From the IMG/VR virus record IMGVR_UViG_3300045988_167582: a DNA stretch of 64,000 bases. One strand, given 5' to 3'. Positions 41,946-62,299 of this stretch are shown piece after piece (positions within the stretch are counted from its first letter, which is position 1; each line of letters opens with the position of its first letter). The notes below the pieces were generated by a model, which was not told the DNA's origin, made no database searches, and saw only the letters and a program-made list of their open reading frames with translations. The translations under genes and the position numbers were made by a program. Origin of the DNA: a virus.

Positions 41946-41960
41946 TTTCCTCCTAATTGA

Positions 41961-44729: not shown

Positions 44730-44740
44730 ATAGCGCCTCC

Positions 44741-45283: not shown

Positions 45284-45300
45284 AACTCATATCCTTTCAT

Positions 45301-45330: not shown

Positions 45331-45346
45331 GAGAGTGGTTTACAGA

Positions 45347-46360
45347 TTAAGCCATTTCGTAACGTCCAATACCAGCGTTGCCACCAGCAAGAACGATACC
45401 CATGCCGTATTTCTCACCGTAGAAATACTCCTGAGTGAAGTCGGCTTTCGTGGTCGGGTCGCCCATGAGAACAATCGGGTTGCCCTCGTAAACAACCTTA
45501 ATGGGCTTGTCGTCACCGGCGATAATGGTGAGGACGTCGTCCTTCAGGACAAAATCGGTAGAGCCGACCTTATGACGCTGCGGGGTTACAACAACGGGAG
45601 TTCCGTAGAACTTACCAGCGTAACCGAGGTTGTAAAGGTCAGACTTGAAACCTTCGCCCTGAATAGAGGGGACGAGGTTACGGATAGCCTTCTTAGTGCC
45701 AACGATTGTGGCAGGCTTGCCGCCCGCAGCAGCCTCAACATGGGCGATGAGGTCTAAGAGGGCTTCCTCATCATAAGTACCTGCGGTGGGGAAGTATGTA
45801 ACACCACCAAGGTCTGCAGCGGTAGCACCACTCCAGAGACCGTAAACGTCGTTGAGCAGCTTCTGGCGGAAAGATTCTGCAACCTTATTGATAAAGTCGT
45901 TGAAGTCAACGCGACCGGAGAGTACGCGATTGAGTTCCTCATAGATTCTCACAGCCTTGAGGGAAGTGGGAATAGAGGTCTCCTTCGCTCCGCCGAGGCG
46001 CTGGCGACGAATGCCCTGAGTGCCATCCGCAGCTTCAGACACAACAAAGAGAGTGTTGTCCTCAACAACGAAAATATTCTGGTCGCCTTCTGCGAGGTTA
46101 CGGAAGTCAACAAGCGCGTTGAAATACTCATCGCCCTGAAGACCCTCAACAACAGTACGGCTGAGGATTTCCTCGATGAGAGTGAAAAGACCACTGCACT
46201 TACCGTCGCGAATAGCCTTATAGTCTAATTTGGTACTGCCGCCATTGGCATCGATAAGTGCCTGACGGAGAACGTCCTGAGACTGCTTAGTAGAGTACTT
46301 CTCAACATTACCCTTATAAGCGTCAACAGCGAGCTTAACAATTTCTTTCATATCAGTCAT
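45347..46360 (-). CDS. Major capsid protein
   Basis: 337 aa, higher GC and codon bias, strong hairpin downstream, position after the scaffold-like genes. Confidence 0.7.
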   Translation of the reverse strand: MTDMKEIVKLAVDAYKGNVEKYSTKQSQDVLRQALIDANGGSTKLDYKAIRDGKCSGLFTLIEEILSRTVVEGLQGDEYFNALVDFRNLAEGDQNIFVVEDNTLFVVSEAADGTQGIRRQRLGGAKETSIPTSLKAVRIYEELNRVLSGRVDFNDFINKVAESFRQKLLNDVYGLWSGATAADLGGVTYFPTAGTYDEEALLDLIAHVEAAAGGKPATIVGTKKAIRNLVPSIQGEGFKSDLYNLGYAGKFYGTPVVVTPQRHKVGSTDFVLKDDVLTIIAGDDKPIKVVYEGNPIVLMGDPTTKADFTQEYFYGEKYGMGIVLAGGNAGIGRYEMA

Positions 46361-46383
46361 GATTTGTTTCCTCCTTTCAGTGA

Positions 46384-46890
46384 TTAGTCCACCTTGATGA
46401 CGTAGTATGTATATCTACCAACGACATCAACAGCGATGATACGACCAACTTTGGTGGAGCCAGTAGTAGCCGAAGCCACAAACGCAAGCTTAGTACCGGC
46501 GGCTAACTCAACGATATTTCCAACGGCGGGAGTGCCGGTACCGGAGAGCGCCTCCGCAGTAACAGAGAAAGTGTCGCCGCTGTGGATGTGATAACCACGG
46601 CAAGCCTTGCCAGCCTCGTTTACGAAGTCATCAAGATTGTGCTTATGCTCGTCATATACCACCTCAGGAGAAGCGATAAGAACGATATCGTCAATTTTGT
46701 CATTAGCGGCAACCGCACCGCCGATATAGATTTCGCGCTCACCAGTCATGAGAGCGCCAATTTTAAGAACATTACCGTTTTCAATAGCGGTAGGGGTGGC
46801 ACCATTGGCGCCCATATACTTCACGGACACAAGCTGACCACGGACATCGGTGCCAGCCATAGCGTCAGTTCTAACTACTGCATATGCCAT
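46384..46890 (-). CDS. Head-module protein (decoration or scaffold-associated)
   Basis: Position immediately upstream of the capsid gene. Confidence 0.4.
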   Translation of the reverse strand: MAYAVVRTDAMAGTDVRGQLVSVKYMGANGATPTAIENGNVLKIGALMTGEREIYIGGAVAANDKIDDIVLIASPEVVYDEHKHNLDDFVNEAGKACRGYHIHSGDTFSVTAEALSGTGTPAVGNIVELAAGTKLAFVASATTGSTKVGRIIAVDVVGRYTYYVIKVD

Positions 46891-46911
46891 AATGTAATTA
46901 CCTCCTGTTAA

Positions 46912-48450
46912 TTATTCAGATTCAATTCCGTACTGACGGAATAATCCGCCATACGGTTCTGTAGTTGTGTCGGTTTTATCGACCTTGATTTTCGGAGCCT
47001 TTGTGCTTGCGTCATAAGAGAATTTCGCAACAGTGTTTCTGCCACGAATTGCAAAGCATTTTTCCTCCAACGTAGCAACATCATACTTCTCGGCTTCCGC
47101 CTTGAGAGCTTCAAACGCTTCTACGCCTAATAAATCTTCAAACTGAGCGAAGACTTCATCTCGCTCTGTTTTCGCAACGGCTGCATCGGTATCAGCCTTG
47201 AACTGACGAAGTGTGTCAAGCTCAGATTTCATAGATGCAATCGTGTCGGAGGCGCTTTGGTATTTAGCTTCCAAGTCGGTATTGCTATGGATTTTCTCTT
47301 CAAGTATTGTGTACACAGCGGCAAACGGTGAAGCCTGTTCGCCTTCGTCAAAATCTACGATTTCGTATTTCTTGCGCTTCTTGCTATCGAAATCGATTAT
47401 TACAGCATCGCCGTCGATTTTATAGGCGAAACCATATAAGAGCCAGTCATTGCTGTCCCAGCAGAACACCTCATTGGCGTCTTTATCGTAGTCCACAAAC
47501 CAATACCTTGTGACTTCACCCCATTCCCGCTGAACCTTTTCAGCCTCAAGGGCTCTGCAGAGTTCCTCTCTGAAATTACCTTCAAGAGCGAATTTGCTGT
47601 CTGCGTCACCGTCAGTATCGTTATGGTTGTCATCGGACTTGCCTGCCGTGAACTCCTTTAATTTCTCCTCGAGCTCATCTAAAGAGATGTCGTCGATAGA
47701 AAAATCTAAAGTTTCGGCGTCAAGCCCGTACTTTGCGATTAAATCTAACTTATCTTTCAATACCTTTTCTCCTCCTTCCATCGAATAATTTTGTGGGTGT
47801 ATATTGTCATCCTCCGCAGAGGTATTGACCTTAGAAAAACTCTCCTTTATCTCAAGCATCATCTCTGAAAGTTGCTGCTTGAAATCCTGCTTTGAAAATT
47901 CAAGTGCGGCAGACTCAAAACACGGCTCTACGCCAATTAACGCAAAAGCGGTGAACTCGAAATCATAGATTTCATAAACGCCATTCACCATCTTGCCGTC
48001 ATTAACGGTAATCTCCATAGACTGTGCGCTACAGCCGTCTTTCTTGATTTTTTGATATGCCTCTTGTCGCTTCCAAAGCAAAGCTTCAGCGCATAGATAC
48101 TCGTGTACGGTTCCGTCATCTTCTTCAACTTCTTCCCAGAAAGTTTTGGCGCTCTCAGGGATGCATCCCACCGGGGTGGTGTCATTGACAATTCTTAAAC
48201 CGCCGTCGCTATCTCGAACAATTTCCATATCATGTCCGCCGAGCGTGTCTGTCTCTCTGTCGTAATTGCAAACAATAGGACAGTTGTAAATTGTCTTCAG
48301 GCACCGTTCAAAGGTCGCCTTGTCAATTCGGCTCTTGTTTCTGTTTTCGCCGGAATAAGCAATTCTCAAAATTCCAGAGTCGAAGGAAGAATTGACTTCA
48401 CACAAGTCGGTTAAAGATGATGCGTATGTCAAATTTAAGACCTTATTCAT
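46912..48450 (-). CDS. Scaffolding / prohead-maturation protein
   Basis: 512 aa, acidic, C-terminal coiled coil. Lies between portal and capsid. Confidence 0.45.
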   Translation of the reverse strand: MNKVLNLTYASSLTDLCEVNSSFDSGILRIAYSGENRNKSRIDKATFERCLKTIYNCPIVCNYDRETDTLGGHDMEIVRDSDGGLRIVNDTTPVGCIPESAKTFWEEVEEDDGTVHEYLCAEALLWKRQEAYQKIKKDGCSAQSMEITVNDGKMVNGVYEIYDFEFTAFALIGVEPCFESAALEFSKQDFKQQLSEMMLEIKESFSKVNTSAEDDNIHPQNYSMEGGEKVLKDKLDLIAKYGLDAETLDFSIDDISLDELEEKLKEFTAGKSDDNHNDTDGDADSKFALEGNFREELCRALEAEKVQREWGEVTRYWFVDYDKDANEVFCWDSNDWLLYGFAYKIDGDAVIIDFDSKKRKKYEIVDFDEGEQASPFAAVYTILEEKIHSNTDLEAKYQSASDTIASMKSELDTLRQFKADTDAAVAKTERDEVFAQFEDLLGVEAFEALKAEAEKYDVATLEEKCFAIRGRNTVAKFSYDASTKAPKIKVDKTDTTTEPYGGLFRQYGIESE

Positions 48451-48460
48451 CTCAACCTCC

Positions 48461-48493
48461 TAAAATAAAAACACCGTATACTGCTGTATACGG
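48461..48493 (-). terminator. Intrinsic terminator abutting the SD of the scaffold gene
   Basis: CCGTATAC-4-GTATACGG followed on the minus strand by GTGTTTTTATTTTA, then GGAGG and ATG. Confidence 0.55.
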
Positions 48494-48494
48494 G

Positions 48495-48623
48495 TCAGAA
48501 TGTAAGAGTGTTTGAAATAACATAATCGGAGCCAAGTAAATCAAAATTCAAATCGTTCCGATATTCAAACACAAATATGCAATTTTTCTTGTCGGACTTT
48601 AATAGTGTATAACCTGCCGACAT
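48495..48623 (-). CDS. Small hypothetical ORF (42 aa)
   Basis: ATG with GAGG 6 nt upstream. Ends just before the terminator. Confidence 0.3.
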   Translation of the reverse strand: MSAGYTLLKSDKKNCIFVFEYRNDLNFDLLGSDYVISNTLTF

Positions 48624-48670
48624 AAGTGCCTCAAAAGCTTTCTTGGTAAAAACATAAATAAATTTACCCA

Positions 48671-50188
48671 TTACCAGTCGTCACCGTCCTCTCTGGACTG
48701 TTCTCCGCTATCGGTTAACTCGTCTGCCTCTAACTGAGGTCTGCCACCCTCGTCTGTAGGTGCGGCAGATTCTGACGCAGCAGAGCTTTGTGTAGACGAA
48801 CTTCGGAGCGGAATAAGCAACGATTTCAAACTCAACACTTCGTTTTCGAGGAAGTTCATGGAGTCAAACTCTGATTGGTTGAGTCCCTGAGAAGCTGCAT
48901 ACATCATAATGGTAGGCAGTCCGTATTGAGCTGCTTTGAGATATTGGTCTCCGACTTCCTTACGATTAAACGGGCTACAATCAAGGAAAGTCACCTTAAA
49001 GTTTTTTCCATAAGACTGAGCCTGAATAAAGCGATTCACCATATCCTCGATGCTTTTAACGATTCCGTATGTAACGGCTTGGTCAACCTTCACGGAAAGA
49101 ATTAACGCATTTGCAGATGCCTTTTCATTGTTAAATAAAAGCGACTGCACACCGGCTGCTGAAAACAAATTTTGTTCAGCTTCCGAAATCGTGTCAGTAT
49201 CACCCGTGTTTGAACGTTCAAAACTGATTTTGTTAATAGGCATCGGTGTAAGAACGGAACCGACCTCTTCTGGCAACACTGCGTCGAGATTCTGCCAAAA
49301 CTCTTTGGCTTTATCATAATCCAGTAACCAATTACCATCATCGTCCATCGGCAAACGCATATCAAGCATAGCGTAATTCTCGAGGGCTGTTTTCGTGAGC
49401 TTTAATTGCTTGTAGTCCTCAAGGTCATAAACTTCACGCAGGATACCCGCGAAGGGAGGCATGGCGTAATCAAGGATGTCGTTATTACATTTGATTGCGA
49501 AGGATGAGGGGGAATCAAGTTCAATCCATCTTGACATACGATTTTTTTGATAAACTGCATACTTGGTCTTAAATTCCGGTGGGTAATACTCAAGCATCTG
49601 ACTCTTAGAATCAAAATATGAGAAGTCGAAGGTTACATTTAGGACATTCCCTTCAATGCTTGAAATTGAGCAGTAATCGCTCGGCAGTTGCTGAATCGTA
49701 ATACTGTCATTTGTAACCCACATAGTCCCATAGAAAACATCTTCTCGTAAGCATACCGTCAGAATCTTAGGAAACTGAGTGCGAACATTCATTACGGACA
49801 TTGCGTTGAGTACCTTACGGTAATTCCTATTGATTGTTTTTACATTTGCGGTCTGCGGGTCGATTTTGCTCGGAGCCACAATATATGCAAGGTCTGATAG
49901 TCCAGTGAAATACTGAATCAATCTTCGAAAATGAGAACTTGCGCCGTACATATAAACAACTGCTTTTCGCAATTGCTTTTCGTATGTATATGGGTTCGCC
50001 AAGTATGAGGTGATATCATCTTTGGAGTAAAGAGAAAAAGTAGGGGTATTGGTGTTGTTGTTCAGGTCGCGAGTAATCAGCTTGTTTAATGTCGCAAACT
50101 TACTTGAAATCCCGATAAGCCCACTAATTTCTTGATTGGCTTTTGCTTCTGCGCGAGCTGGTTTACCACCTCGTTGTGTTTTGCCCAT
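48671..50188 (-). CDS. Portal protein
   Basis: 505 aa directly downstream of the large terminase, acidic C-terminus. Confidence 0.7.
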   Translation of the reverse strand: MGKTQRGGKPARAEAKANQEISGLIGISSKFATLNKLITRDLNNNTNTPTFSLYSKDDITSYLANPYTYEKQLRKAVVYMYGASSHFRRLIQYFTGLSDLAYIVAPSKIDPQTANVKTINRNYRKVLNAMSVMNVRTQFPKILTVCLREDVFYGTMWVTNDSITIQQLPSDYCSISSIEGNVLNVTFDFSYFDSKSQMLEYYPPEFKTKYAVYQKNRMSRWIELDSPSSFAIKCNNDILDYAMPPFAGILREVYDLEDYKQLKLTKTALENYAMLDMRLPMDDDGNWLLDYDKAKEFWQNLDAVLPEEVGSVLTPMPINKISFERSNTGDTDTISEAEQNLFSAAGVQSLLFNNEKASANALILSVKVDQAVTYGIVKSIEDMVNRFIQAQSYGKNFKVTFLDCSPFNRKEVGDQYLKAAQYGLPTIMMYAASQGLNQSEFDSMNFLENEVLSLKSLLIPLRSSSTQSSAASESAAPTDEGGRPQLEADELTDSGEQSREDGDDW

Positions 50189-51947
50189 AAATCCTATTCA
50201 CCGCCTTTCCCTTAAAAGATGGTGGCTTAATTACAAACATTTCAGATGAGCTAATATTCACACTGTTTCGCTTGCTCATTTTATTTTCAATTTGCATAGC
50301 CACATAATAGTTATAAGATAAACTTGAGTACCGGTCTTTTCGCATACCGGTCTTTTCATATATTCTCACTTTACCACCGGACTCCTCATGTTGGAGCTTA
50401 GTCAACTCATCAATGAGTAGGGTGGTATGTATATACGGAAGTTGTAACTGCATACGTTCGGCAGGGGACAGAGAACTGTATCCTCGTATATCTCCCAGAA
50501 GTTCTTCGGCGTCATACTCCGTTGCGAGAAGCCGTATTCTACCGCTTCTAAATGCCTCGCGTAATAAGAAAGCACAATCAGAGTTGAACTGCGCATTCGC
50601 TTTAACTGCCCAGATGACTTTGTCGGCTCCCATCACGGTACATCGTGATGCCATTTCTTGATTATTGCAACAAGACAGAGCAGGGTATATCTCTCCTGTC
50701 TCTGGGTCAACAATATCTCTCGCAAGGCAATCATATACGCCCAGACCCAGACCGTTCGTATCAAGCACGAGATAATCGCAAGCAAATTCGTCGAATAACT
50801 TCCGAATAACTAAAGCTTGGTCATCGGTGCGAAGCCCCTCGCAAGCGTCAGCATATACAATATTGCTTGTGTATCTACCAGCCTTTGTAGGCATTAGCTG
50901 GTTGATAAAAATAGCAGTTGCGTCGTTATTATTCTTACGGCTTGACATTAGCGCTATATCAGCAGATAAAATTCTAATCTCGCCGTTTTGCTTAATTGGA
51001 ATCTTTACGAGCTGAGAATTATTTACCTTCTCCGCAAGTTTGTTGGGTAACATGGGGTATTTAATCCTTCTGTTTTTGGAGATAGAGTTGTAATCAAAAA
51101 ATGAGCCGTCGGTACTACCGTACCACAACGCCTCATATTCCATCTGGAATTTGATTTCATTGAAATCCGTCTCAGCCATTTCATCTGCAACTGTATCTGC
51201 GTCAAGCAATCCTTCGGTAATAGAAAGCTGGTATGGCAATCCGCATACAAACTGTCGCTTTGTATCATCGAGCATAAAACGGCAAGTATCGGTACATTTG
51301 AGATAGCTCCAATGGTCAACAAAGTAAGCAGAGGAAAGATACATTGTTTTGTTTTTCTCCTTCGCATACTCTGCCTTGCGTTCTTCCTTGGATAGTTCTT
51401 CGTATCGAGGCATACGCTTCTGAGTTAAAAACTTACGAAGAATTGTATCAATAACATCCTTGGCAATCATTCGGAACTCATCCAAAAGTAAAAGATTGGC
51501 TCGGTTTCCTCGGGCAGAGTCTGAGGCAGTAACAACCTTTATATAAGAAGAATTCTTAAAAACAATTTGTGCGTTTGTACCGTTGATTTTAGTTTCCTTC
51601 TCGTCGATTTCAGCGGCTAACTCAGGGGAATTAGGCTTTAATTCGAGAATGATTTTTTCTAAAACATTGATACTTTGTCCTCTTGTGCCGGAAGCAATGC
51701 ATATTTTGGTTCCGGGGTACAGGATACATCTGATTACGCAGAAGACCGCACTAAGAAATGATTTACCGATACCACGGCTACCGATGAATGCAGTAGTCGT
51801 AGACCAGTTCATCATTACAATAAGAATTTTTTGGAACAAGTGTAAGTTAAGATGTAGATAGTCCTTTGCGAAACGATGAGGATTGGCTCGATAATATGAA
51901 CACCATTGTGCGACCCCGGCGAGTATACGCTCTTTACGACTCGTCAT
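50163..51947 (-). CDS. terL: Terminase large subunit
   Basis: Walker A GSRGIGKS, Walker B LLLLDEF, C-terminal nuclease-like domain. Confidence 0.9.
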   Translation of the reverse strand: MTSRKERILAGVAQWCSYYRANPHRFAKDYLHLNLHLFQKILIVMMNWSTTTAFIGSRGIGKSFLSAVFCVIRCILYPGTKICIASGTRGQSINVLEKIILELKPNSPELAAEIDEKETKINGTNAQIVFKNSSYIKVVTASDSARGNRANLLLLDEFRMIAKDVIDTILRKFLTQKRMPRYEELSKEERKAEYAKEKNKTMYLSSAYFVDHWSYLKCTDTCRFMLDDTKRQFVCGLPYQLSITEGLLDADTVADEMAETDFNEIKFQMEYEALWYGSTDGSFFDYNSISKNRRIKYPMLPNKLAEKVNNSQLVKIPIKQNGEIRILSADIALMSSRKNNNDATAIFINQLMPTKAGRYTSNIVYADACEGLRTDDQALVIRKLFDEFACDYLVLDTNGLGLGVYDCLARDIVDPETGEIYPALSCCNNQEMASRCTVMGADKVIWAVKANAQFNSDCAFLLREAFRSGRIRLLATEYDAEELLGDIRGYSSLSPAERMQLQLPYIHTTLLIDELTKLQHEESGGKVRIYEKTGMRKDRYSSLSYNYYVAMQIENKMSKRNSVNISSSEMFVIKPPSFKGKAVNRIYGQNTTRW

Positions 51948-52956
51948 TTACGCCACCGGAATCATCATTATTACTATCAGAATTGAAGATGTTGTTAAAC
52001 ATCGTCTCATCGTCATCATCTTCATATTCCGGGCGCTCAATTCTCATTTTTGCAAGCTCGTCCTCGTAAAGTTTGCAGTATGTATTTTTAATACCCAGCA
52101 TCTTGCACAGGTGCCCAAGGAACCATATTGAGATATACCGAATGATTCCATCTACATCTTTTAATTCGGGGTCTGGCTCCGGAATTGGGCGCTGATTTTC
52201 CCATTTGCGAACCCATACACCGAACGGTGTGTTTTCTAACGCACCATCTCCATCATTTTTCTGCTGGGCAGGTTTCATGTTTGCGCTGCCAAGCAGTGTA
52301 TTCAATGCGTTAATGCTCTTATCAACAGCGCGTCCCGCTGCACGGTCGCGGCTGATATCAAGTTCAAGACCGCAAATCTGCTTAATGATTGTCTCCGTAC
52401 CAACATCTAATACGGTATTTTCAGGGAATTTAGAAACCCAATATGCCCTCTTCCGCTCGAGCTCGTTATACATCTCAGGCGTATAGCCTGTACCCCAGAA
52501 TGCAATAATATCTTCATCGACCTCCTCGCCGGAGTCTTCGACTTCTTCTGCCTGTGGGGTATTGATGGAAGCAATACTGGTCTCAAAGTTCCATAGGCTG
52601 CCCTCTTCGGACAGCGTATCATCATAACTTTTCCCGGCGTATGTAACGGTATTGATTTTTGCGATGTATTGAGTCATCATAGAACGAGTGGTAGTTTTCT
52701 TTGCTACGACATCAAAAACCTTTTTGCTCCAATATAAATCCAACTTTCGGCAAACCTGTCGAACCGCATCCTCTGCGTTATTACACTGGGAGAGATAAGT
52801 GTTATACATCGTATCAATACAGTCTTTGCAAACGGGGATGTACCCAATGCCCTTATGGAGCAGAGCATAACTTACGGGGAAATATCCTTTTCGTCTGCTG
52901 TACTCTGTACCGCATTTGGTGCAAACAGCCTTGTCGGAACTTACTTCAATAGCCAT
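51934..52956 (-). CDS. Putative terminase small subunit (N-terminal Zn ribbon)
   Basis: Overlaps the terL start. CTKCG...CKDC. Position only. Confidence 0.45.
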   Translation of the reverse strand: MAIEVSSDKAVCTKCGTEYSRRKGYFPVSYALLHKGIGYIPVCKDCIDTMYNTYLSQCNNAEDAVRQVCRKLDLYWSKKVFDVVAKKTTTRSMMTQYIAKINTVTYAGKSYDDTLSEEGSLWNFETSIASINTPQAEEVEDSGEEVDEDIIAFWGTGYTPEMYNELERKRAYWVSKFPENTVLDVGTETIIKQICGLELDISRDRAAGRAVDKSINALNTLLGSANMKPAQQKNDGDGALENTPFGVWVRKWENQRPIPEPDPELKDVDGIIRYISIWFLGHLCKMLGIKNTYCKLYEDELAKMRIERPEYEDDDDETMFNNIFNSDSNNDDSGGVNDES

Positions 52957-53432
52957 CAGAAGTCACCTCCGTCATCATCAGCAACTTTATCGCTTGGTAT
53001 TGGAGAGTGGGCTCCATTTTCGTCCAAAGAAAGCTCAAACATCTTTGCACAAAGCCTCAAGTCATTTCCAAAAACAAACTTCGGAACATAACGCGCTTCG
53101 ACTTCTACCGGTTCTCCCGTTGTGGGATGTTTAGTCGCTCTTGCTTTACGGTGATGCAACCCCAGTGTCCCGAAGCCTCGTATTGATACGGAGTCACCGT
53201 GTTTCAGGGCGTCCTCAATAACGTAAATACAGGTATCCACCATTGATTCGATATCGTCAATAGTGAAAAGAACATCTTTATCTGTTTTCTTTACCACAAA
53301 ATCTTTTGTGTTGCCCTCATCATCTGAGATATGGAACACTTGCTTCGGTGACGATATTGGTTTACGGATGCCGTTATCCTTCATAACTGCGGCAATGCGC
53401 CGCACTAATTCCTTTCGATTCATAATAAGCAA
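52956..53432 (-). CDS. HU/IHF-family DNA-binding protein (extended, 158 aa)
   Basis: RGFGTLGLHHRKARATKHPTTGEPVEVEARYVPKFVFG matches the HU beta-arm. Confidence 0.75.
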   Translation of the reverse strand: MLIMNRKELVRRIAAVMKDNGIRKPISSPKQVFHISDDEGNTKDFVVKKTDKDVLFTIDDIESMVDTCIYVIEDALKHGDSVSIRGFGTLGLHHRKARATKHPTTGEPVEVEARYVPKFVFGNDLRLCAKMFELSLDENGAHSPIPSDKVADDDGGDF

Positions 53433-53451
53433 CTCCTTTTATTCATTACAC

Positions 53452-54474
53452 TTAGATATCAGCGAATGACTTCTTCTCGGGAACGGTCAATTCGCCGTCT
53501 TTGAAATACATTCCGATTTCTTCATCGGAATCTATATCCTTATACACGCGTACCATGTCGCTCGATTCCCATGCAACGATTGTTTGTATTGCACTATCGG
53601 GCAGCCCGGCACGAGCTAAACTTGTTGTGAAATAATGTCTAAGAGAATGAATATAACAAGGCTTGCCCGAGATTCGACTATATGTATTTGCCCAGCTGTT
53701 CGCAGTAGAAATAGGAATATGCGTTGCCGGATTAGTTTTGTCCGGGAACAACCATTCGCTGTCTATCCCTGCTTCATTTCTCTCGTTCATCCACAGGTCA
53801 AGATACGGCTTAAACTTTTTGGACAGCGTGTAGCAGCAGATGATTTTGCCTCCGCCGGTTCCTTTGGTCTTCATCGGGGCGCTCTTGTAGAGGGCACCGC
53901 CGCATACGAGTTTATCATCGTCAAAATCAGATACTTTGAATCTACAGAGTTCTGCCTTACGTCTCCCGCTGTACATACCGAGAGCAAGATAACAGGCTTT
54001 CTCGTATTGCTTCTTTTCAATCAGCTTTTCGAGAATAGTTTCAAGTTCCTCGTCCTCCCAAACTGTCTTTTCACGCACAGGACGATTGACCGGATTTTCA
54101 ACTCTATTGATGATATTTCTGAAATTAGGATATTCATCATCAAGCACGTTTTCGATATAGTTGCTCAAAGATGATAAAGCAGCTTTAAGTCTGCGAATCC
54201 TTGCGGGACTGTTCTCGTTACTGTTGAGCAGCCAGTTCTGATAAGCCACAATATTACGTTTTGTCCAATCAACGAAGTAGTGGTTTCCGTTATTCTGTAA
54301 ACACCAAGCCCATGCGATTTCAATATCATTCTTGTAACCAGCAATGGTGGTCTCGCTTCGCTGAACTGAGCGCAAATAATCAAGAAAATCAGAAAGCAAT
54401 TGCGTGTTTTCGGGGTTCACCTGTGCCAGAAGCTCAGGTGATGTTATAGAATTCATCTTTGTCTTTCTCGACAC
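53452..54474 (-). CDS. XerC/XerD-like tyrosine recombinase
   Basis: SAM-like N-domain, SGRRKAEL (Arg), HSLRHYF, WES..MVRVY. GTG at 54474 is best placed after AGGAGG. Confidence 0.8.
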   Translation of the reverse strand: MSRKTKMNSITSPELLAQVNPENTQLLSDFLDYLRSVQRSETTIAGYKNDIEIAWAWCLQNNGNHYFVDWTKRNIVAYQNWLLNSNENSPARIRRLKAALSSLSNYIENVLDDEYPNFRNIINRVENPVNRPVREKTVWEDEELETILEKLIEKKQYEKACYLALGMYSGRRKAELCRFKVSDFDDDKLVCGGALYKSAPMKTKGTGGGKIICCYTLSKKFKPYLDLWMNERNEAGIDSEWLFPDKTNPATHIPISTANSWANTYSRISGKPCYIHSLRHYFTTSLARAGLPDSAIQTIVAWESSDMVRVYKDIDSDEEIGMYFKDGELTVPEKKSFADI

Positions 54475-54545
54475 AAGTTTCACCTCCTAAATGAATTAAC
54501 CGAGGCAACTTAATTTGTCGCCCCGGTTATCTGGTTGTATATGTA

Positions 54546-55736
54546 TTATAATGAGATATCGTAGTGGCACAGTATGCCGTTCTCGTCGCAAACACAAACC
54601 ATTTGCTCCGGCTTACCGAATATTCTCTTCTGGATGCAATAGTCGTCTATACCCAGAAAACTTCCCGCCATGACAGTCTTTATACCCTGTACGACATCAA
54701 CCTTATTATGGTGCAGATGTCCGGATAAAACCGCATATACAGGCTTGCCAACCATTGTTTGAAGAGCTTGTACTTTTGCGGCAGAACCGTCATAGTCCCC
54801 GTGAACTCCGCAATAGAGCTTGCCGCGAATATCAATCGTATACATTGTTTCATCGATTTTATTGTCGGCAATGATGATATTATCGAAATTTTGGAGACGA
54901 GCTTTGACATACCACTCAATGAGGTCGTCAAGTCTCTCTGATGATAATGAATCATCTTTATTCGGACTGATTCTGCTGTGATTACCAGCAACCGTGATAA
55001 ATGTGACTGTGTTAAAATGCTTGCTTAATTCTGCAAGAAACTCCGATACGAGTTCTGATACACCCATGACCTGCTTAATCACATTTTCTTTGTTGGTGAT
55101 AGCAATCGAATAATGAATGTTCCCGGAAATTGCATCTCCATTCATCCAGCAAATACAGTTTTCACTTTTATGTGTTTGACCGATGGAGATAATTCTGTCG
55201 AGGTATCGGCACATCATATCTCTACAAATACAAGAATTATATTCATTCCATGCGTTCTTGATATTTGCTCCGTAATGTATATCGTTCAAACTTACGAGTA
55301 AATCGTTGTCCGACTGAATCTGTATATGAGGGGAGTAATCCAGCGTCGGGAGTTCTCCGCTCTGCACGGCTGCGACTAAGATTTCATTTAATTCTTCTTG
55401 GCGAGACCTGTCTCGGACTACCTTGTTAAAAGCATTCCTTTGGTCAAAGAATTTCTGACGCTCTTTTCGCAATTCAATCATTTTTTCGTCAAGCTCGGTT
55501 AGAAGCTCATTGGCTGAAGCGCTTTCAACTCTCTCAGAATCCATTAAGTCTAACGTTCGCTTTGAACCGTAAAACATTCTGCGTGCAACATCGCTTGAAA
55601 ATGATTGACCGTAGGCAAGTTCCGCAAGTTCTGTATAATCTACATCTGATAATGTCTTGTCAACGAGCTTCCCATACACGATTCGTTTATGGTAATCAAG
55701 TGGGGTCTCATTTTGCTTTCGTTCTATGTTCACCAT
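54546..55736 (-). CDS. Calcineurin-like metallophosphoesterase with N-terminal helical domain
   Basis: LNDIHYG, NGDAISG, AGNHS, GHLHH motifs. Confidence 0.75.
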   Translation of the reverse strand: MVNIERKQNETPLDYHKRIVYGKLVDKTLSDVDYTELAELAYGQSFSSDVARRMFYGSKRTLDLMDSERVESASANELLTELDEKMIELRKERQKFFDQRNAFNKVVRDRSRQEELNEILVAAVQSGELPTLDYSPHIQIQSDNDLLVSLNDIHYGANIKNAWNEYNSCICRDMMCRYLDRIISIGQTHKSENCICWMNGDAISGNIHYSIAITNKENVIKQVMGVSELVSEFLAELSKHFNTVTFITVAGNHSRISPNKDDSLSSERLDDLIEWYVKARLQNFDNIIIADNKIDETMYTIDIRGKLYCGVHGDYDGSAAKVQALQTMVGKPVYAVLSGHLHHNKVDVVQGIKTVMAGSFLGIDDYCIQKRIFGKPEQMVCVCDENGILCHYDISL

Positions 55737-55941
55737 TGGCACCAACTTTCTGAGTATTAGTACTCGTTGTGCCACCAGCTTTACGCATTTTGCTCAGAAG
55801 TCTCATGACCTGCTTTGTCTCCTCACAATAATAGTGATGCCTCTTGGATTTCTGTTTCATGGTTCTTACGATATGCACCTCCGGGAAGCGTGCGCTAATG
55901 GCTTCTTTTTCTGACTTTGTAATAGCAATCATTGTTAACAT
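55708..55941 (-). CDS. Small basic hypothetical protein
   Basis: First ORF after the 185-nt intergenic region. Confidence 0.35.
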   Translation of the reverse strand: MLTMIAITKSEKEAISARFPEVHIVRTMKQKSKRHHYYCEETKQVMRLLSKMRKAGGTTSTNTQKVGANGEHRTKAK

Positions 55942-56126
55942 TCATCCTTTTCCTCATTATTCCGATTAACCGCGTCAAGATAAAAATATTATTTACAACG
56001 CAAAAAAATCGGTGAAAACATTTGCTATATTTCCTTTCACTATAGTACCTCATCATCTCTGGCGTATTATGGTGTGCCACAACACAATACGCTTTTAATG
56101 AAATTTCAACAAGATAAAAATAAAAT

Positions 56127-56888
56127 TTACACCCTGCTTCTCTGACGCATTACGGAGTTTACACGCTGCCTGACAGCCACCTCCACAGCGCAAGTCTTGC
56201 AGTACTTCTGCTTCCGACCTTTCACAGGGTTAGTCATTTTCGTTGTAATGCCGCAGCACTGGCATTCAATGTACGGTTCTCCATGATATTTGAGATACTG
56301 ATATCCGAGATTGCGAAAATCAGTAATACGCATAACGATATCCCCATCCTCGATGAAACAGACGCGAACATTAGTGTTGTCTATTTTTTTGGAGAATTGA
56401 ATCATGCCCGCCTCGCGTAATGTCCAGTACATAAGCCCTTGCCGCTTAATCGATGTGTTGATATTAGCCATCGACATAATCTCGTTATCCTTGTTGTTTA
56501 CCCAGCAATCTCCGTTTGGGATAACCCTGTTCCAATACTTTGCGAGGCACAGCAGGGTGAAGGCAAGCCGACGTACCTGCTTCCCTTCAAGCGCATCGAT
56601 TCGCTTCATCTCAGACTCTGTAATATCAATTTCTTCTATGTATATTGCTTCATATTTCAAAGCTTTGCTTACGGCAAAATCAAGCGCATCAGACCATTTA
56701 GGGAGCGACGATGTCGGGTCGCACTGCAACAAAAATGAATCAAGCATATTTCTGACATCGCGCTTATTGTATCCTTCGTCGATGTAATACCGAGCAACTC
56801 TATATAATGTTTCTGACGGTTTCTTGCCCAAGGAGTGAGAGTGTATCATGCTCTCAGCCCATTCGTGTTCGCGTAAAACTATACTCAT
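56127..56888 (-). CDS. Hypothetical protein with C-terminal Zn ribbon and basic tail
   Basis: CQCCG...CKTC then RQRVNSVMRQRSRV. Start overlaps the RNAP stop. Confidence 0.5.
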   Translation of the reverse strand: MSIVLREHEWAESMIHSHSLGKKPSETLYRVARYYIDEGYNKRDVRNMLDSFLLQCDPTSSLPKWSDALDFAVSKALKYEAIYIEEIDITESEMKRIDALEGKQVRRLAFTLLCLAKYWNRVIPNGDCWVNNKDNEIMSMANINTSIKRQGLMYWTLREAGMIQFSKKIDNTNVRVCFIEDGDIVMRITDFRNLGYQYLKYHGEPYIECQCCGITTKMTNPVKGRKQKYCKTCAVEVAVRQRVNSVMRQRSRV

Positions 56889-59629
56889 ACATTCACCTCT
56901 ATTTTTTTAGTGGAGATAGAGAACCTCTCACCGCAATATTCGATATCCCCGTTAGAATCCAAAACAGGGTAGGAGATTGTCTGGTCGCATTTATTCAGCA
57001 AGTTGCAGATAATATCCTGACCACACATACTCCATGCAAACTTTTTAGTCGAACTTCTTGTGTAACACAAATCAAGAATGATATTACACAGCGCGTCTCT
57101 ATTTTGGCATATTGCATTGCAATCTCGTCTGAACTCGTCTGTCATAATAGACATCTCAGCGTATGAGTCGCATTCATCAACCCGTTCGTAATCTGCGAAT
57201 ACGGCATAATTACGCAACCTTTTATTAAAATCCTCATACAGCTTTTTTATTGCATTGTACTGTGTTGGGCTATAATCTGCCTGCCCGCGCATGATTCTAT
57301 AGTCAAACTTAACGACGGAATTGTGCTTTCCGATATACCCGTCGAACTCCTGCTCGAACCGACGGCATATTCTATTCATTACGCAGTTCCCAACACCTAC
57401 AGGCATCCGATAATCATAGTATTTAAGAAAATCCCGCTGCCGTTCGGTCAATTTGTCGTCCGGAATGTTGCGGAGTTCCTTGACCGTCATTTGGAACTCT
57501 CGAAGGGCATTTCGCTCGGTGTTTTTGATATATGTATTATATTGCTTCATCAAAGCGGGGTAGATGTAGCGCATAAAGTAAGGCTTTTTATCAGCGACAA
57601 TGGAACGATAAAAATCTCTCATTGAATCATCTTCGATTTTATTGGCAGCGTGTCTGTCATGCCATGTTCTCGGCATCGGCTTACAAATGATACCCTTTGC
57701 TTTGTCGATGGCATTTTGCTGATAAAGCTGACCGCATTTAATTCGATAGGAGAGTTCCTCGTACTCTTTGCTACCTTCTCTAAATCTGGATTGAACCTCA
57801 AACATAGATGTAATCCAATTGGTGGTCTGACCTATGTCGTTACCGAAACTTTCGATATTCGAACGGATGAAATCGTCGGCAGTAGAGATTTTTTTCTCAG
57901 CTTTTCGTTGAGCGCACATCAAGGCGGGCTGTACATGGAGTTTTTCTACAAGAACTTTGTTATCGGTGAGCATTACTAAGTCGCCGTCAAAGTCCATTCC
58001 GTTAAGGGCTGCCGCAGCCGTATCCCATGAATTAAAAATGGTGCAGGTGTTCATATACTGATACCAATATCGAGTATTGGCGGTATCAACCGGGTGGACG
58101 AGTCGGATATTGTTGTGACAGGTCATTGGTGCTCTGTAGCAAGCAAGTCTGTCAGCGCCGGAGTCAGCCCAATATCTGTTATAAATCTCTCCGTTCTTCA
58201 ATAATCCAGTCACCTTAAGCCCGAAGATACTCTGACAAAGCGAGTATGGGTCGCCGGATACAATTGAATAATTCCCGTGAACCTTTAGTACTCCGACCTT
58301 AGCTTCGTTGATTCTGTTTCGGATTAACTGATATACGGAACTTTGGACGAATGGGTCATCTATCATCCGGCTATCAATCATAATTGCCTTAACAAAATCG
58401 TCATCCAGAGAATCAATGTTTTTATCGTTTAACCCTGAACCTTTTAGAAATAACACCGTCTTACGCCAATCCCCGCGAAGAACATCTTTGATTTCGTCCA
58501 TGGTCGGAGCTATCAGTTCTTCGATATCCTTATCATCAAGGTCATAGCTCTGAATGAACTGATAATTCAATGTGCGTTCTTTTTCGAGCTCCTTTGGACA
58601 AGTCTTAGCCACACCGAACGAATATCCGTTTTTTACTGAGTTTTCAATATAGGAATCGCAGCTATCGTAGGAGTCCCATAATTTAACCATTGATGTGGTC
58701 AGAATAAGCTCGACATTGCGGACGTCAACATCATTACCCCACGCATCTTTAACTATGTAATTTTCATCCGCCACTTTGGATGCGAAGTCAACAAAGTCGA
58801 ATGTAAACACCATACCCTTTTCAAAAGAGAATCGGGTGTTGACGCCACTAACGATGTAGTCCAAGTTCAGCTCCTTGCTCCATCGCTCGGCAAGAGAGGG
58901 GAGCATAATGCCATAACCATCCGAAGCGTCCATGTTAATTTCCTGCGATTTGCGGTCTTCCATAATCGGCTCGCCGTCGCATTCGTCGGTCAAATAAACA
59001 ATGTCGGATAAGAAACTTGTTTCACAGTCGTTAACAACGAGAATGCCGTTTGGAAGCGATACCGGTGTAGAGGCACTGCACGTCAAAGCCTTGTACGCCT
59101 CAAGCTTCGCTGTGACAAGTTTCTTTTCCGAATTTCTGCCGTTATCAATTCGACGCGATAATTCTTCTACATACCGTTCGCTGGCAAAAACAATAGTGCT
59201 GTTTTTAATACCACCGTTCGTCCCAAGAAGACGCTTATACTTTGTACCGTTGATTGAGAATCCGCGACAGGCTTTGTAATAGTCCTTCTCCTTATCGATT
59301 ATTAGGCACATATAATCCGGTTTATATTGAATCGAGTCGAGCTGCGTATAAAGCTGCTTAATACGCCTCCTGTTTTGAACACTATTTTGCTCTTTGCGGA
59401 TACGGCGTATTTCTTCTTTAATGGCACGCGCCTGTGCGTCCGCGTCCGTAATACCATTCAGCTCGTCAATCCAGCGAAGCACCTGACTATCGGCTAAGGA
59501 GATTACCTCATCATTTCTTCTGGCTTCTTCGATGGGGAGAGTGAGCTTCCACTTGGACTTTCTCAAACGACTACTATGTATTTTGTAGATATACTTCTGA
59601 CATACTAACTGTTTTGCTATGATAGTCAC
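56885..59629 (-). CDS. YonO-like single-subunit two-barrel (DPBB) RNA polymerase
   Basis: YRAPMTCHNNIRL (beta-prime NRAPTLHR..IQ-like) and NGMDFDGD (NADFDGD / RdRP DxDGD metal motif, nt 57980-58000). 914 aa. Confidence 0.75.
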   Translation of the reverse strand: MTIIAKQLVCQKYIYKIHSSRLRKSKWKLTLPIEEARRNDEVISLADSQVLRWIDELNGITDADAQARAIKEEIRRIRKEQNSVQNRRRIKQLYTQLDSIQYKPDYMCLIIDKEKDYYKACRGFSINGTKYKRLLGTNGGIKNSTIVFASERYVEELSRRIDNGRNSEKKLVTAKLEAYKALTCSASTPVSLPNGILVVNDCETSFLSDIVYLTDECDGEPIMEDRKSQEINMDASDGYGIMLPSLAERWSKELNLDYIVSGVNTRFSFEKGMVFTFDFVDFASKVADENYIVKDAWGNDVDVRNVELILTTSMVKLWDSYDSCDSYIENSVKNGYSFGVAKTCPKELEKERTLNYQFIQSYDLDDKDIEELIAPTMDEIKDVLRGDWRKTVLFLKGSGLNDKNIDSLDDDFVKAIMIDSRMIDDPFVQSSVYQLIRNRINEAKVGVLKVHGNYSIVSGDPYSLCQSIFGLKVTGLLKNGEIYNRYWADSGADRLACYRAPMTCHNNIRLVHPVDTANTRYWYQYMNTCTIFNSWDTAAAALNGMDFDGDLVMLTDNKVLVEKLHVQPALMCAQRKAEKKISTADDFIRSNIESFGNDIGQTTNWITSMFEVQSRFREGSKEYEELSYRIKCGQLYQQNAIDKAKGIICKPMPRTWHDRHAANKIEDDSMRDFYRSIVADKKPYFMRYIYPALMKQYNTYIKNTERNALREFQMTVKELRNIPDDKLTERQRDFLKYYDYRMPVGVGNCVMNRICRRFEQEFDGYIGKHNSVVKFDYRIMRGQADYSPTQYNAIKKLYEDFNKRLRNYAVFADYERVDECDSYAEMSIMTDEFRRDCNAICQNRDALCNIILDLCYTRSSTKKFAWSMCGQDIICNLLNKCDQTISYPVLDSNGDIEYCGERFSISTKKIEVNV

Positions 59630-59674: not shown

Positions 59675-59854
59675 TTAGTCGTTGTATTCGGATATGTATT
59701 GTTCCCACTCTGTGCGGAACTCTTGTCTGCCTTTTTCGATAAGCTCTTCTATGGCGTAATCTTCTGCTGCGTCTCCGAGCGGCGCATAATCGTCGCACAA
59801 GTCGCTGCTATTGCAAACATCATAATAGTAGCAATTACTGCAGGGTTTCGTCAT
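59675..59854 (-). CDS. Small Cys-rich acidic protein (59 aa)
   Basis: MTKPCSNCYYYDVCNSSDLC. AGGAGG upstream. Confidence 0.4.
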   Translation of the reverse strand: MTKPCSNCYYYDVCNSSDLCDDYAPLGDAAEDYAIEELIEKGRQEFRTEWEQYISEYND

Positions 59855-61082
59855 AAACGATGTTTCCTCCTTTACTTGTAGATTCAATCCAATTGATAAG
59901 CAGCGTTCTCATGCGCCTGCTTGGTATGTATAAATAAACTTCGCCGCCGTCCCTGATTGCCGAGCGCCATATCCACTGAACCATGATAGAAAGCGCATAG
60001 GCGTCTTCATCAACATTGATACCGTGCATCTGATAGAACTTTTTCTCATTGACATTCATAAACAAGTTGGCGATATATACGAGACAATCTCGTTTGCGGT
60101 ATGCGTTCGTTGCCTTCGCATTAAATGTCAGGAAGGATTTCGTGTATCCTTTCCCTTTGATTTTGTTGCACTCGCCGTTGTATGACCCCCAAAGCTTTTT
60201 GTCAGCAGGGACGTCTCTCCAAATGTTGTTAAAACAGTTGGATACGTTCTTCTTTAATTGTTCTACATCTCCGCCGCCACGCTTAAACCAGTTCATGGAC
60301 AGAGCGTAGTAGTCATCCCCGACATCGTTGATTTTGCTTCTGCTCAGAATATGGAGCATATCTTTTAGATGATATACATAGTCGGGAGTGTAGCCCGGAT
60401 AATCACCGAAACGATAACCGCCATCTTCTGTTCGCTCTATTCCGATATACTCATATGGAATATTGTAAATCTTCATGAAGTGATGGAGGCTCTGTCCCTT
60501 GAACAGATATGTCAGAATAAACACATCCCTGAACGAGGTGAGGAGTTCGGGAGGTAGTGCCCAATAAAACAGAGAATTATCGTCCTTGTCTGTCATGCGG
60601 ATAAGCTCTCGTGATTTTAATAAGCTGAACAGTTCATGCAGTGCCTTTCCTTTATAATCCTCTTTAGCGATAGTATAAATACCGTTATTGTCCGTAATGT
60701 ACCCGGCATCAAGCGCAAGCTGAAGGTCATCTTGATGGAAATCAAACGCTTCCAGCACATCTACGTTTTCGTCGATAATAAGCGTGTATCCCTGCCTGCG
60801 GATATCTTCGAGCGTCTCTGGCGTGTACCGCTTGAATGCCTGATGTGTAGTTGTGATATTCCTGCCTTCTTTAATGAGCGCAGCCGTATGCTCAAACTTA
60901 CGGAAGTTATACTGCTTAAGCTTGTCACTTGGTTCAATAAAGCGCAGATGAGGGCAACCTTTCTTAATGCGGGTTGCTTCATCCAGATACGGAGTGATAT
61001 ATATGAACTTATCACTTGCGTGTTCGTTGAGGTAGGTGATAGCTGCACTTGACTTTCCAGTACCCATAATTGCATCGCACAC
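59835..61082 (-). CDS. P-loop NTPase, SF2/ResIII-helicase-like
   Basis: Walker A at residues 4-11 (AIMGTGKS), Walker B LIIDEN. GTG start after GGAGGTGA. Confidence 0.55.
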   Translation of the reverse strand: MCDAIMGTGKSSAAITYLNEHASDKFIYITPYLDEATRIKKGCPHLRFIEPSDKLKQYNFRKFEHTAALIKEGRNITTTHQAFKRYTPETLEDIRRQGYTLIIDENVDVLEAFDFHQDDLQLALDAGYITDNNGIYTIAKEDYKGKALHELFSLLKSRELIRMTDKDDNSLFYWALPPELLTSFRDVFILTYLFKGQSLHHFMKIYNIPYEYIGIERTEDGGYRFGDYPGYTPDYVYHLKDMLHILSRSKINDVGDDYYALSMNWFKRGGGDVEQLKKNVSNCFNNIWRDVPADKKLWGSYNGECNKIKGKGYTKSFLTFNAKATNAYRKRDCLVYIANLFMNVNEKKFYQMHGINVDEDAYALSIMVQWIWRSAIRDGGEVYLYIPSRRMRTLLINWIESTSKGGNIVYDETLQ

Positions 61083-61184
61083 TTTAACTATTCTCTGTCA
61101 CCTCCTCGTAGAACCACACAGAGTTTTTTCTGATTCTCTTAATGTAAACCAGTCCCTTCTATAAAAATTTATGATAAACGGCTA

Positions 61185-62000
61185 TTAGCCAACTAATCCG
61201 TCGTATTCCTCGATGCTACTGTCAACAAGATAATTACAAGTCGCGCTGCCGAGGTTGAGTTTACGATACGCTTCATCAATTTCCTCCGCCGTAATACCGA
61301 TGTAATCCAGCGTCTGAGCCGGGGAGGAGTGATTAAGCATCTTCTGCAGGAGCATGAGCTTTCTGGAGCTGTTATGACTCATTAACATCTGGTGGTAACA
61401 GAAAGTCTTGCGGAGCGTGTGTGTAGACATCTTAACATTGATATTAAGGTCTGTTGCAATCCCCTTGAGAATTCGGTCAATGGATTTAACACTCAGCGGC
61501 TCATTAAGGTTGCCACCTCTGTTGGATTCACTTCGGAACATATAATCGCTCAGGCTCACGTTCGGAGTGTTCTGGAGAAATAGGGTAACAGCTTCGACAA
61601 CAGCGGTATTGATAGTGATGTATCTGTTCTTCTTACGCTTTCTCGTGTTACGGGTCTTCTTCTCAAAAACAGGGAAGCTGTCTTTAAAGGTGAAGTTGGT
61701 ATTGATGAGATTGCTGAATCGAAGCATCCGCAGGTCGCTTGCGCGAAGTCCAAAGTTGATACCGACGATGAAGAGCATATTATCTCTGTATCTTCCATTC
61801 CGAATTAAGTATCTGGAGATGGCGAAGATGTCGTCCATATTCTTAATGGGTTCCGCTGCGTGTTCAGGTGCGAGTTCGCAGTATGTATCTTCGGTTGCCG
61901 GAGCAATAAGTCCAGCAGCGAGTTTGCGGTTGCTACGCTGTAATAAGCTAATATCAATAACGTTCTGTTTCGAACAATCCAGCTTGAGAATTGTTGCCAT
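61185..62000 (-). CDS. Short tyrosine recombinase (271 aa)
   Basis: GLRASDL (Arg), HTLRKTF (HxxR), LNHSSPAQTLDYIG (His..Tyr). Confidence 0.75.
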   Translation of the reverse strand: MATILKLDCSKQNVIDISLLQRSNRKLAAGLIAPATEDTYCELAPEHAAEPIKNMDDIFAISRYLIRNGRYRDNMLFIVGINFGLRASDLRMLRFSNLINTNFTFKDSFPVFEKKTRNTRKRKKNRYITINTAVVEAVTLFLQNTPNVSLSDYMFRSESNRGGNLNEPLSVKSIDRILKGIATDLNINVKMSTHTLRKTFCYHQMLMSHNSSRKLMLLQKMLNHSSPAQTLDYIGITAEEIDEAYRKLNLGSATCNYLVDSSIEEYDGLVG

Positions 62001-62270: not shown

Positions 62271-62299
62271 ATTATATCATATCCATAGCTGTTTGTCAA
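62271..62299 (-). promoter_or_regulatory. Consensus sigma-A promoter (minus strand)
   Basis: Reverse complement reads TTGACA-17 nt-TATAAT exactly. ~260-nt leader to the ATG at 62000. Confidence 0.65.

Follow-up and report, generated by a model that had tools for sequence, protein, structure and literature searches.

Which enzyme transcribes the late genes of a phage that carries a polymerase gene of its own beside its late block? The question is raised by a 64,000-nucleotide (nt) stretch of viral DNA (IMG/VR record IMGVR_UViG_3300045988_167582, hereafter the window, analysed over its whole length), in which the minus-strand open reading frame (ORF) 56885..59629 encodes a protein of 914 amino acids (aa). 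A preliminary description, made from the sequence without database searches, took this protein for a YonO-like, single-subunit, two-barrel RNA polymerase (RNAP). As judged from sequence comparison and a structure model, the 914-aa protein is almost certainly a two-barrel RNAP of the YonO family. The window very probably comes from a temperate siphophage of the SPbeta-like type, ~111 kb in size and infecting gut Clostridia, whose DNA-dependent YonO-family RNAP acts late. Here we describe the evidence for the polymerase (ORF, Pfam, BLASTP, AlphaFold2 and Foldseek), its probable target, and a conserved neighbouring protein and DNA cassette that may take part in its action.

The ORF starts with GTG in the open reading frame list of the window and was confirmed exactly as previously read, and the identical 914-aa product is predicted by independent gene callers on 9 public contigs. 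The RAP-like motif lies in YRAPMTCHNNIRLVHP (aa 498-513, nt 58091-58138) and the DxDGD motif in ALNGMDFDGDLVML (aa 541-554, nt 57968-58009). The catalytic DFDGD itself (aa 546-550) occupies nt 57980-57994, so that the motif stands while its earlier placement at nt 57980-58000 was slightly off. The columns for D546, D548 and D550 do not vary in an alignment of 91 RNAP homologs (26-85% identity to the query), and neither do those for R499 and P501 of the 'RAP' motif, D237-G238 and K271-G272. Across all six frames of the window, D[FY]DGD is present only once, as the DFDGD of the RNAP. Because they are invariant across the 91 homologs, and DFDGD is unique in the window, the motifs are regarded as selected features and not as chance matches. 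A decayed or repurposed homolog, e.g. primase-like or structural, without transcription function would hardly be expected to keep its Asp triad and other active-site residues invariant in 91 homologs together with a confidently predicted fold, and the phage already has a DnaG-type primase and a DNA polymerase. Decay is a generic possibility for distant homologs with nothing specific to recommend it here, and we rate it the least probable of the explanations considered.

The two barrels are assigned with approximate borders. The first (beta-like) barrel, ~aa 196-311 (58697..59044, minus strand), is a strand-rich block in the model with invariant columns, and when the family profile is run against PDB sequences it falls on the 'sDGxG...KG' barrel of plant RDR2. 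The second (beta-prime-like) barrel, ~aa 449-572 (57914..58285, minus strand), is marked by the invariant R499, P501, D546, D548 and D550 and contains both the RAP motif and the catalytic DFDGD, which is aligned with GGDLDGD of RDR2 and DNDGD of YonO. The DGxG...KG segment and the DxDGD loop are collinear with plant RDR2 in the profile search; as a single-sequence query against PDB sequences, the RNAP returns nothing relevant, the RNA-dependent RNA polymerases (RdRPs) being reached by the family profile only. The RAP...DFDGD of the second barrel also resembles the NRAPTLH...NADFDGD of E. coli beta-prime.

The Pfam RdRP family PF05183 matches the RNAP with 52.3 bits (gathering cutoff 23.8, E 5e-14), aligning aa 120-607 to profile positions 62-502 of 582. 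No Pfam Rpb1/Rpb2 domain is detected in the 914-aa chain, and NCBIfam has no model for it or for the 253-aa protein encoded next to it. A tblastn search of 50,697 cultured-phage records finds RNAP homologs in 41, among them Clostridium phage c-st (41% identity, full length), six Enterocloster phages (~37% identity), Bacillus phage BUCT082 (31% identity, full length) and 24 SPbeta-type phages, in which yonO is matched by aa 122-610 of the window RNAP (25% identity, E 1e-20 to 1e-22). Pairwise BLASTP with SPbeta YonO gives E 3e-27, with 25% identity over 507 aa and DFDGD placed over DNDGD. In metagenomes there are >4,008 family clusters at 90% identity and 1,840 at 50% identity, 575 of the latter with E 1e-30 or better. 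The earlier remark that such enzymes are poorly sampled is thus apt for cultured phages and not for metagenomes. The family, including its presence in clostridial phages, is already known, since the c-st annotation calls CST179 and CST177 'YonO-homolog'.

The AlphaFold2 model, built on the 91-sequence alignment, has a mean predicted local distance difference test score (pLDDT) of 92.9 and a predicted template modelling score (pTM) of 0.88. In a Foldseek search of the PDB its top matches are exclusively two-barrel polymerases, headed by maize and Arabidopsis RDR2 and Neurospora and Thielavia QDE-1 (E 1e-17 to 1e-19, template modelling (TM) score 0.45-0.49, ~900 columns). These are followed by the virion RNAP gp66 of the crAss-like phage phi14:2 (6VR4, E 6e-6, TM 0.25) and, weakly, by bacterial beta-prime chains (E ~1e-2); the PDB copy searched contains no YonO-type structure. 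In a viral structure library, metagenomic phage 'RdRPs' come first, then crAss-like RNAPs. The structure comparison proposed at the outset thus aligns the model over its full length with two-barrel QDE-1 and RDR2, which points to two double-psi beta-barrels in one predicted chain of ~100 kDa. The YonO-like two-barrel claim is borne out by PF05183, YonO BLASTP, the structure model and the gene order described below.

These matches bring up two other functions for the protein. Since cellular RdRPs are both its top Pfam family and its nearest structural neighbours, the enzyme might copy phage or host RNA, e.g. for antisense or double-stranded RNA. The label 'RNA-dependent RNA polymerase' is indeed attached to YonO-family RNAPs in OQ326496 (Enterocloster phage PMBT24), PQ571309/10 (TR-TP1/2) and MT325768 (Perkons). 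However, YonO, the only family member with biochemical characterization in the searchable literature, strictly prefers DNA templates, and QDE-1 itself also has DNA-dependent activity (PMC9508822). The genomic setting is that of a late-gene switch in a double-stranded DNA phage, and the labels were taken over from the name of the Pfam family and have no experimental origin. We therefore consider an RdRP function very improbable, and the label, which many GenBank records and pipelines based on Pfam attach to such DNA-phage proteins, is probably misleading.

The similarity to gp66, and a gene position ~4 kb from the genome or contig end, where injection might begin, would fit an early polymerase packaged in the virion and injected with the DNA to transcribe early genes, of the gp66 or N4 virion RNAP type. 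The match is a poor one, though (TM 0.25; 914 aa against 2,166 residues in the solved gp66 chain), the gene belongs to an operon that has a consensus host promoter and is not part of the virion module, and YonO is a late-acting enzyme made only after induction, so that a virion polymerase appears just as remote a prospect as an RdRP. Because size, location and fold distance differ, the window RNAP is not a crAss-type virion RNAP. Nor is it of the T7 or N4 type: it has no Pfam RNA_pol match and no right-hand (Pol I-like) structural neighbour.

Insertions of 0.3-1.2 kb break up the RNAP gene in relatives. They occur at two hot spots, one in the DFD|GD loop (aa 546-549) and the other at the invariant I641|D642. 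Examples are found at 10330-10629 in locus L102, 7671-7989 in L106 (c-st), 3615-4785 in L098, 11911-12224 in L100, and both 2344-2772 and 3059-3507 in L107 (CB473P3). These interruptions explain why PHROGs has separate N-half and C-half RNAP families beside a full-length one (all of 'unknown function'), and why 'half' proteins occur in databases. The insertions look like introns, and the Rfam group I intron model stays below its gathering score at the insertion sites. The window RNAP gene is intact. A group I intron (Rfam, 86 bits) is present in the terminase gene of one relative, and others have tRNA arrays between the exonuclease and integrase genes (intron and tRNA array coordinates: L020 12681-12967; L070 9466-10099; L025 10110-10568).

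What is known of YonO sets the expectations for the window enzyme. YonO is a processive, strictly DNA-dependent RNAP with an essential Asp triad, and with neither RNA cleavage activity nor detectable trigger-loop homology in its family (Forrest et al. 2017, PMC5467207). It is produced after prophage induction, and 37 SPbeta late genes, forming one operon with a start site upstream of yonK, need it; its promoter and any cofactors were left open (PMC5467207), and literature searches returned no later report of either. The SPbeta pac site has been reported just upstream of yonO.

Does the setting of the window gene match that of yonO? The window is the terminal 64 kb of its contig and starts inside the replication module. 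A contig of 111,459 bp also encodes the exact 914-aa protein, with 4,372 nt between the gene and the contig end, compared with 4,371 nt (64000-59629) in the window. Because the window cuts the replication module, and the identical gene is equally far from the end of the longer contig, the phage is taken to be ~111 kb in size, which replaces the ~60-kb siphovirus of the preliminary description. Many relatives of 95-121 kb share this layout, and five independent assemblies end at the window-end position, which is either a repeat-induced assembly break or a physical genome end. The 19-mer GCACCCCACCCTTTGCGGT occurs exactly three times on the plus strand (62622-62640, 63915-63933 and 63960-63978; 0 expected), with a partial copy on the minus strand at 31696-31714, and two of the copies lie inside a perfect 45-nt tandem repeat (63901-64000) that runs off the window end. 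Close relatives are found in metagenome-assembled genomes (MAGs) of Oscillospiraceae, Acutalibacteraceae, Eubacteriales and Ruminococcus, some of them inside contigs of 130-360 kb, and are therefore regarded as prophages of gut and rumen Clostridia.

The replication module (plus strand, 0.1-19.8 kb) encodes Erf, exonuclease, DnaB, primase, DNA polymerase, PhoH, NrdD and an integrase. On the minus strand, the RNAP is preceded from 62.0 kb by a group of genes (59675..62000; assigned by PHROGs, Pfam and conserved order) encoding a short tyrosine recombinase of 271 aa (61185-62000), a P-loop protein with a YonV_C domain (59835-61082, YonV_C match) and a 70-aa Cys-rich protein (59675-59887), and is followed by the 253-aa partner protein. 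Beyond the partner lies the late block (20472..55941, minus strand; assigned by PHROGs, Pfam and pairwise homology), the presumed target of the RNAP. It begins with a 77-aa ORF, a YonJ-like exonuclease (E 2e-18, pairwise), an integrase, HU, a YonG homolog (E 1e-52, pairwise), TerL, portal and a YonD_N protein, and continues down to 20.5 kb with virion proteins, a 2,372-aa tape measure protein, and tail and lysis genes. The 77-aa ORF was considered as a YonK homolog and rejected on comparison. The SPbeta order is yonO, yonN (HU), yonK, yonJ, yonG, yonF, yonE, and its late module is matched in the window by homologs of YonJ, HU, YonG, TerL, portal, YonD and YonV. The gene order recurs in PMBT24, TR-TP1, Perkons and BUCT082, and in 80 IMG/VR loci with RNAPs 61-80% identical to that of the window. 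The initial placement of a YonO-like RNAP at the leftward late block is upheld by this order shared with SPbeta.

Several observations concern the genes of these modules. The 64 kb contain three genes for tyrosine recombinases (18557-19825, plus; 53452-54483, minus; 61185-62000, minus). In 60 of the 80 relatives a recombinase lies inside the late module, between exonuclease and HU, and in 57 of the 80 the short 271-aa recombinase heads the RNAP operon. A 309-aa ORF in the late block (22566-23495, minus) joins a holin-like part (aa 1-89) to a metallo-endopeptidase/endolysin-like part (aa 104-252). The region to the right of 62.0 kb is not conserved among the 80 related loci. In the window it contains a divergent gene (62564-63823, plus) of higher GC content (0.47), called as 335 aa on public contigs and without a Pfam or NCBIfam match, whose product ends in LTAKQAKVLALRQSGYGYKAIATYLAIRPDSVRDCLKAIQAKA, resembling a sigma70 region-4/LuxR-type helix-turn-helix.

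If the RNAP transcribes the late block, what transcribes the RNAP gene? An extended -10 sigma70-type promoter (TTGACA-17-TG-n-TATAAT, 12/12 match) at 62271..62299 on the minus strand points into the operon for the 271-aa recombinase, the YonV-like protein, the 70-aa protein, the RNAP and the partner, and is the sole promoter on that strand of the window to score at least 11/12. Among 53 distinct related loci, 38 have a promoter of at least 10/12 within 450 nt upstream of the RNAP operon, compared with 2/53 on the reverse strand and 3/106 in coding sequence as controls. A promoter scan finds no sigma70-type promoter at the head of the window's late block, and in related loci such a promoter is present there in 4 of 61, which is the background level. 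A host promoter before the RNAP operon and none at the late block agree with a cascade in which host RNAP produces the phage RNAP, which in turn transcribes the late genes. From synteny and this promoter distribution, we infer that the RNAP probably transcribes the late block.

The description of the RNAP as 'single-subunit' may be too simple for this clade, since the conserved partner gene carries a zinc ribbon that in SPbeta is fused to YonO. The partner (56127..56888, minus strand; adjacency, hhalign, structure model) is a 253-aa protein in which helical and winged-helix-like parts are combined with a four-Cys zinc ribbon at the C-terminus (aa 209-233, nt 56190-56264). The two genes are translationally coupled, with a 4-nt overlap between the partner start and the RNAP stop. 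The partner adjoins the RNAP on the downstream side in 80/80 IMG/VR loci, and among all loci fetched the adjacency holds down to 38% RNAP identity. In cultured phages, BLAST finds homologs in c-st (CST177), BUCT082 and six Enterocloster phages, always directly downstream of the RNAP, and detectable partners are confined to phages with a full-length (long-form) match to the window RNAP. For the partner family, 1,833 relatives are found in the database and no Pfam domain is recognized, and the structure model of the window protein has a pLDDT of 86.9. Some homologs (P0288, P0368, P0373; loci L018, L060) are 375-380 aa in length and carry a ~120-aa GIY-YIG (PF01541) homing-endonuclease extension, and the loci with such extended partners have longer gaps before the late block.

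The ribbon ties the partner to the polymerase. By hhalign, the ribbon of the partner-family profile aligns to YonO aa 787-829 (probability 88.7%, E 2.6e-6). YonO and the Perkons RNAP end in a ribbon of their own (...SNKAKYCQSC and ...NTKKYCTSC), and no partner gene follows either of them. The RNAPs of the window, BUCT082, c-st and PMBT24 are without it, and their partners carry the same signature (...SNKTKYCSSCAKEI). The 914-aa chain has no CxxC...CxxC and lacks the C-terminal ribbon of the YonO/Perkons type, an absence that is a clade difference. Among the RNAPs compared the distribution is mutually exclusive, the ribbon being found either on the RNAP or on the partner. A zinc ribbon is not listed as a family-defining feature in the YonO literature consulted. 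Such fusion or fission argues that the partner works with the polymerase, and that it is a functional cofactor seems a serious possibility, if somewhat short of an even chance, on these sequence comparisons. It is more doubtful, though conceivable, that the clade uses a two-protein enzyme, RNAP plus a winged-helix-like/zinc-ribbon factor, in which the factor and the cassette described below define the YonO-type promoter and initiation. Such an enzyme would amount to a minimal two-barrel polymerase assisted by a zinc-ribbon initiation factor in the style of TFE/TFIIB.

Between the partner gene and the late block lies a conserved cassette of ~95 nt (56028..56121, minus strand; nhmmer, covariation, folding), which begins 6 nt past the partner stop codon and is found by nhmmer in one copy per locus in 77 related loci (52 distinct sequences). 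Its first part is an A-rich, TGTTGA(C)AAAAA-like box (window 56101-56113), and its second a 13-bp hairpin (56062-56092) with a conserved TTG-N5-CAA apex and a freely varying lower stem. The third is a strong Shine-Dalgarno sequence (GAGGTG; GAGGTA in the window) followed by a start codon. Compensatory double changes are seen at 13/13 pairs of the hairpin, and 83% of the cells are paired, versus 64% in shuffles and 36-48% with the partners slid. The covariation score is 0.49 (versus 0.18), which is reached by 0/500 shuffles. The excess of G-U over A-C pairs (36 versus 15) favours a structure on the sense strand, and a folding energy of -19 kcal/mol (z -3.3) is computed for the window copy. ATG, TTG or GTG serves as start codon in 31/41 sequences. 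In the window it is the GTG at 56040, which opens 15 codons; in all, the peptides are 3-48 aa and unconserved, and this is therefore a leader mini-ORF and not a protein gene. The cassette is absent from Rfam, and Rfam and tRNA scans of the window find nothing. We suggest tentatively that it contains the late promoter or the 5' leader. In the reading that we prefer, the late transcript would start at or just upstream of the hairpin, with the hairpin and the ribosome-loaded leader protecting its 5' end.

Several candidate sequence elements near the start of late transcription were also compared. A TATAAT-like box after the hairpin was rejected as a -10 element, since many members lack the A at position 2 and the variable base cycles through ATG/TTG/GTG behind the GAGGTG Shine-Dalgarno sequence. 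A local repeat in the gap, TTTTTATCTTG, is not enriched (7 matches versus 3.3 expected), and the TATGARGG likeness of the cassette to SPbeta is slight (6 matches versus 1.3 expected in 19 kb) and was not relied on. For SPbeta, the primer given by Forrest et al. for the published YonO start site (2225998) has no match in the genome collection, while their primers bracket the site to 11933-12127 of the SPbeta locus (L001). The yonN-yonK gap of that locus contains two copies of TCATTTATGARGGT (11881-11895 and 12038-12052), of which the second lies within the bracketed stretch; it is loosely like the cassette part TATGAAGG, with weak statistics.

Could host RNAP instead reach the late genes on its own? 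It would then read through from 62299, the hairpin acting as a terminator or attenuator overcome by a phage antiterminator, and the YonO-like enzyme would have a narrower target. Between 62.0 and 20.5 kb every gene points the same way, with one strong promoter on that strand, and the hairpin is GC-rich, flanked by an A-tract and a short T-tract, and placed between the two units. Yet the hairpin is followed by a weak T-tract or none (CCAGAGAUGAUG in the window), the homologous late block of SPbeta is silent without YonO (PMC5467207), and an RNAP conserved beside the late module in every relative would be left with no explained role. For these reasons we think such an arrangement improbable.

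A number of points nevertheless weigh against late transcription by the phage RNAP together with its partner and cassette. There is no strong terminator between the RNAP operon and the late block, so read-through from the 62299 promoter could also reach the late genes, and the hairpin could be an attenuator or terminator insulating early from late transcription, which is the main alternative for the cassette. The cassette hidden Markov model has no match in PMBT24 or in the yonN-yonK gap of SPbeta, even when the search space is reduced to 5.5 kb, and the gaps of c-st and PMBT24 show nothing cassette-like by eye; because SPbeta and PMBT24 have no detectable counterpart, the cassette cannot be tied to the mapped YonO start site. 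As for the partner, Foldseek gives no significant match and only weak ones to winged-helix DNA-binding proteins, the zinc-ribbon homology is short (43 columns at 89% probability), and the protein adjacent to the TR-TP1 RNAP has no ribbon. Finally, the regulon and activity ascribed to the window RNAP rest on comparison with relatives and models, and its template specificity and late-gene regulon, like the part played by the partner and the place of the late promoter, are what we infer from them.

Transcription of the late block by the phage RNAP remains the reading that we favour, and would proceed as follows. After induction or infection, host RNAP would start at 62299-62271 and transcribe the short operon for the small recombinase, the YonV-like protein, the 70-aa protein, the RNAP and the 253-aa partner. 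The newly made RNAP, with catalysis by the DFDGD Asp triad of the second barrel and the K271 region of the first, would then transcribe the 36-kb leftward late block (packaging, virion, lysis) as one long unit, as YonO does in SPbeta. The winged-helix-like/zinc-ribbon protein would most likely act with the RNAP, possibly in start-site selection, and initiation would most likely take place at or just upstream of the cassette. The covarying hairpin, and the strong Shine-Dalgarno sequence with its mini-ORF, would make up the 5' end of the late RNA.

No relatives of cellular RNAPs are known that are smaller than the YonO-type enzymes, which serve as a model for the ancestral two-barrel polymerase. 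The window does not contain a new kind of enzyme; its family occurs widely among temperate phages of ~100 kb in gut Clostridia. What it offers are handles beyond SPbeta: the ribbon module, whose occurrence either fused or separate points to a functional unit, a sharply defined 95-nt cassette, and a clear difference in promoters, the RNAP operon having one of host type and its presumed target none. The cassette, this difference and a zinc-ribbon partner encoded separately go beyond the searchable literature and are put forward as hypotheses from sequence analysis. A partner and a conserved control element could help explain how YonO-type enzymes start transcription.

The closest well-studied system is thus SPbeta, whose YonO belongs to the same family as the window RNAP, shares its two-barrel core, and is likewise encoded upstream of HU, YonJ, YonG, TerL and portal, both genes lying near a genome end or pac region. 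The two differ in length (914 aa in the window versus 839 aa in YonO), in the catalytic loop (DFDGD versus DNDGD), in the zinc ribbon (on a separate, translationally coupled protein versus at the C-terminus of the chain) and in host (gut Clostridia versus Bacillus). The late module of the window has an inserted integrase, unlike that of SPbeta, and its ~95-nt cassette stands where SPbeta has a 1.7-kb non-coding stretch. Nearer in sequence are the long-form RNAPs of c-st (CST179/178 with partner CST177), the Enterocloster phages (PMBT24 and the CB457/473 series) and BUCT082, which are 31-41% identical over the full length and have the partner gene directly downstream, followed by HU and terminase. 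In contrast to the window, these phages have no detectable copy of the hairpin cassette, and insertions split the RNAP gene at the catalytic codons in c-st and several Enterocloster phages. The best structural neighbours, QDE-1 and RDR2 (PF05183; PDB 2J7N, 7W82, 7EU0), share the DGxG...KG and DxDGD motifs. They are eukaryotic RNA-silencing enzymes, only 12-14% identical, with N-terminal extensions that the phage RNAP lacks, and the latter, unlike them, is expected by analogy to use DNA templates. The phi14:2 gp66 (PDB 6VR4) has the same two-barrel catalytic core but is more than twice as long, is packaged in the virion, acts early, and has no sequence-level similarity to the window RNAP. Compared with the multisubunit beta/beta-prime enzymes, the window RNAP is a single catalytic chain of about a quarter the size.

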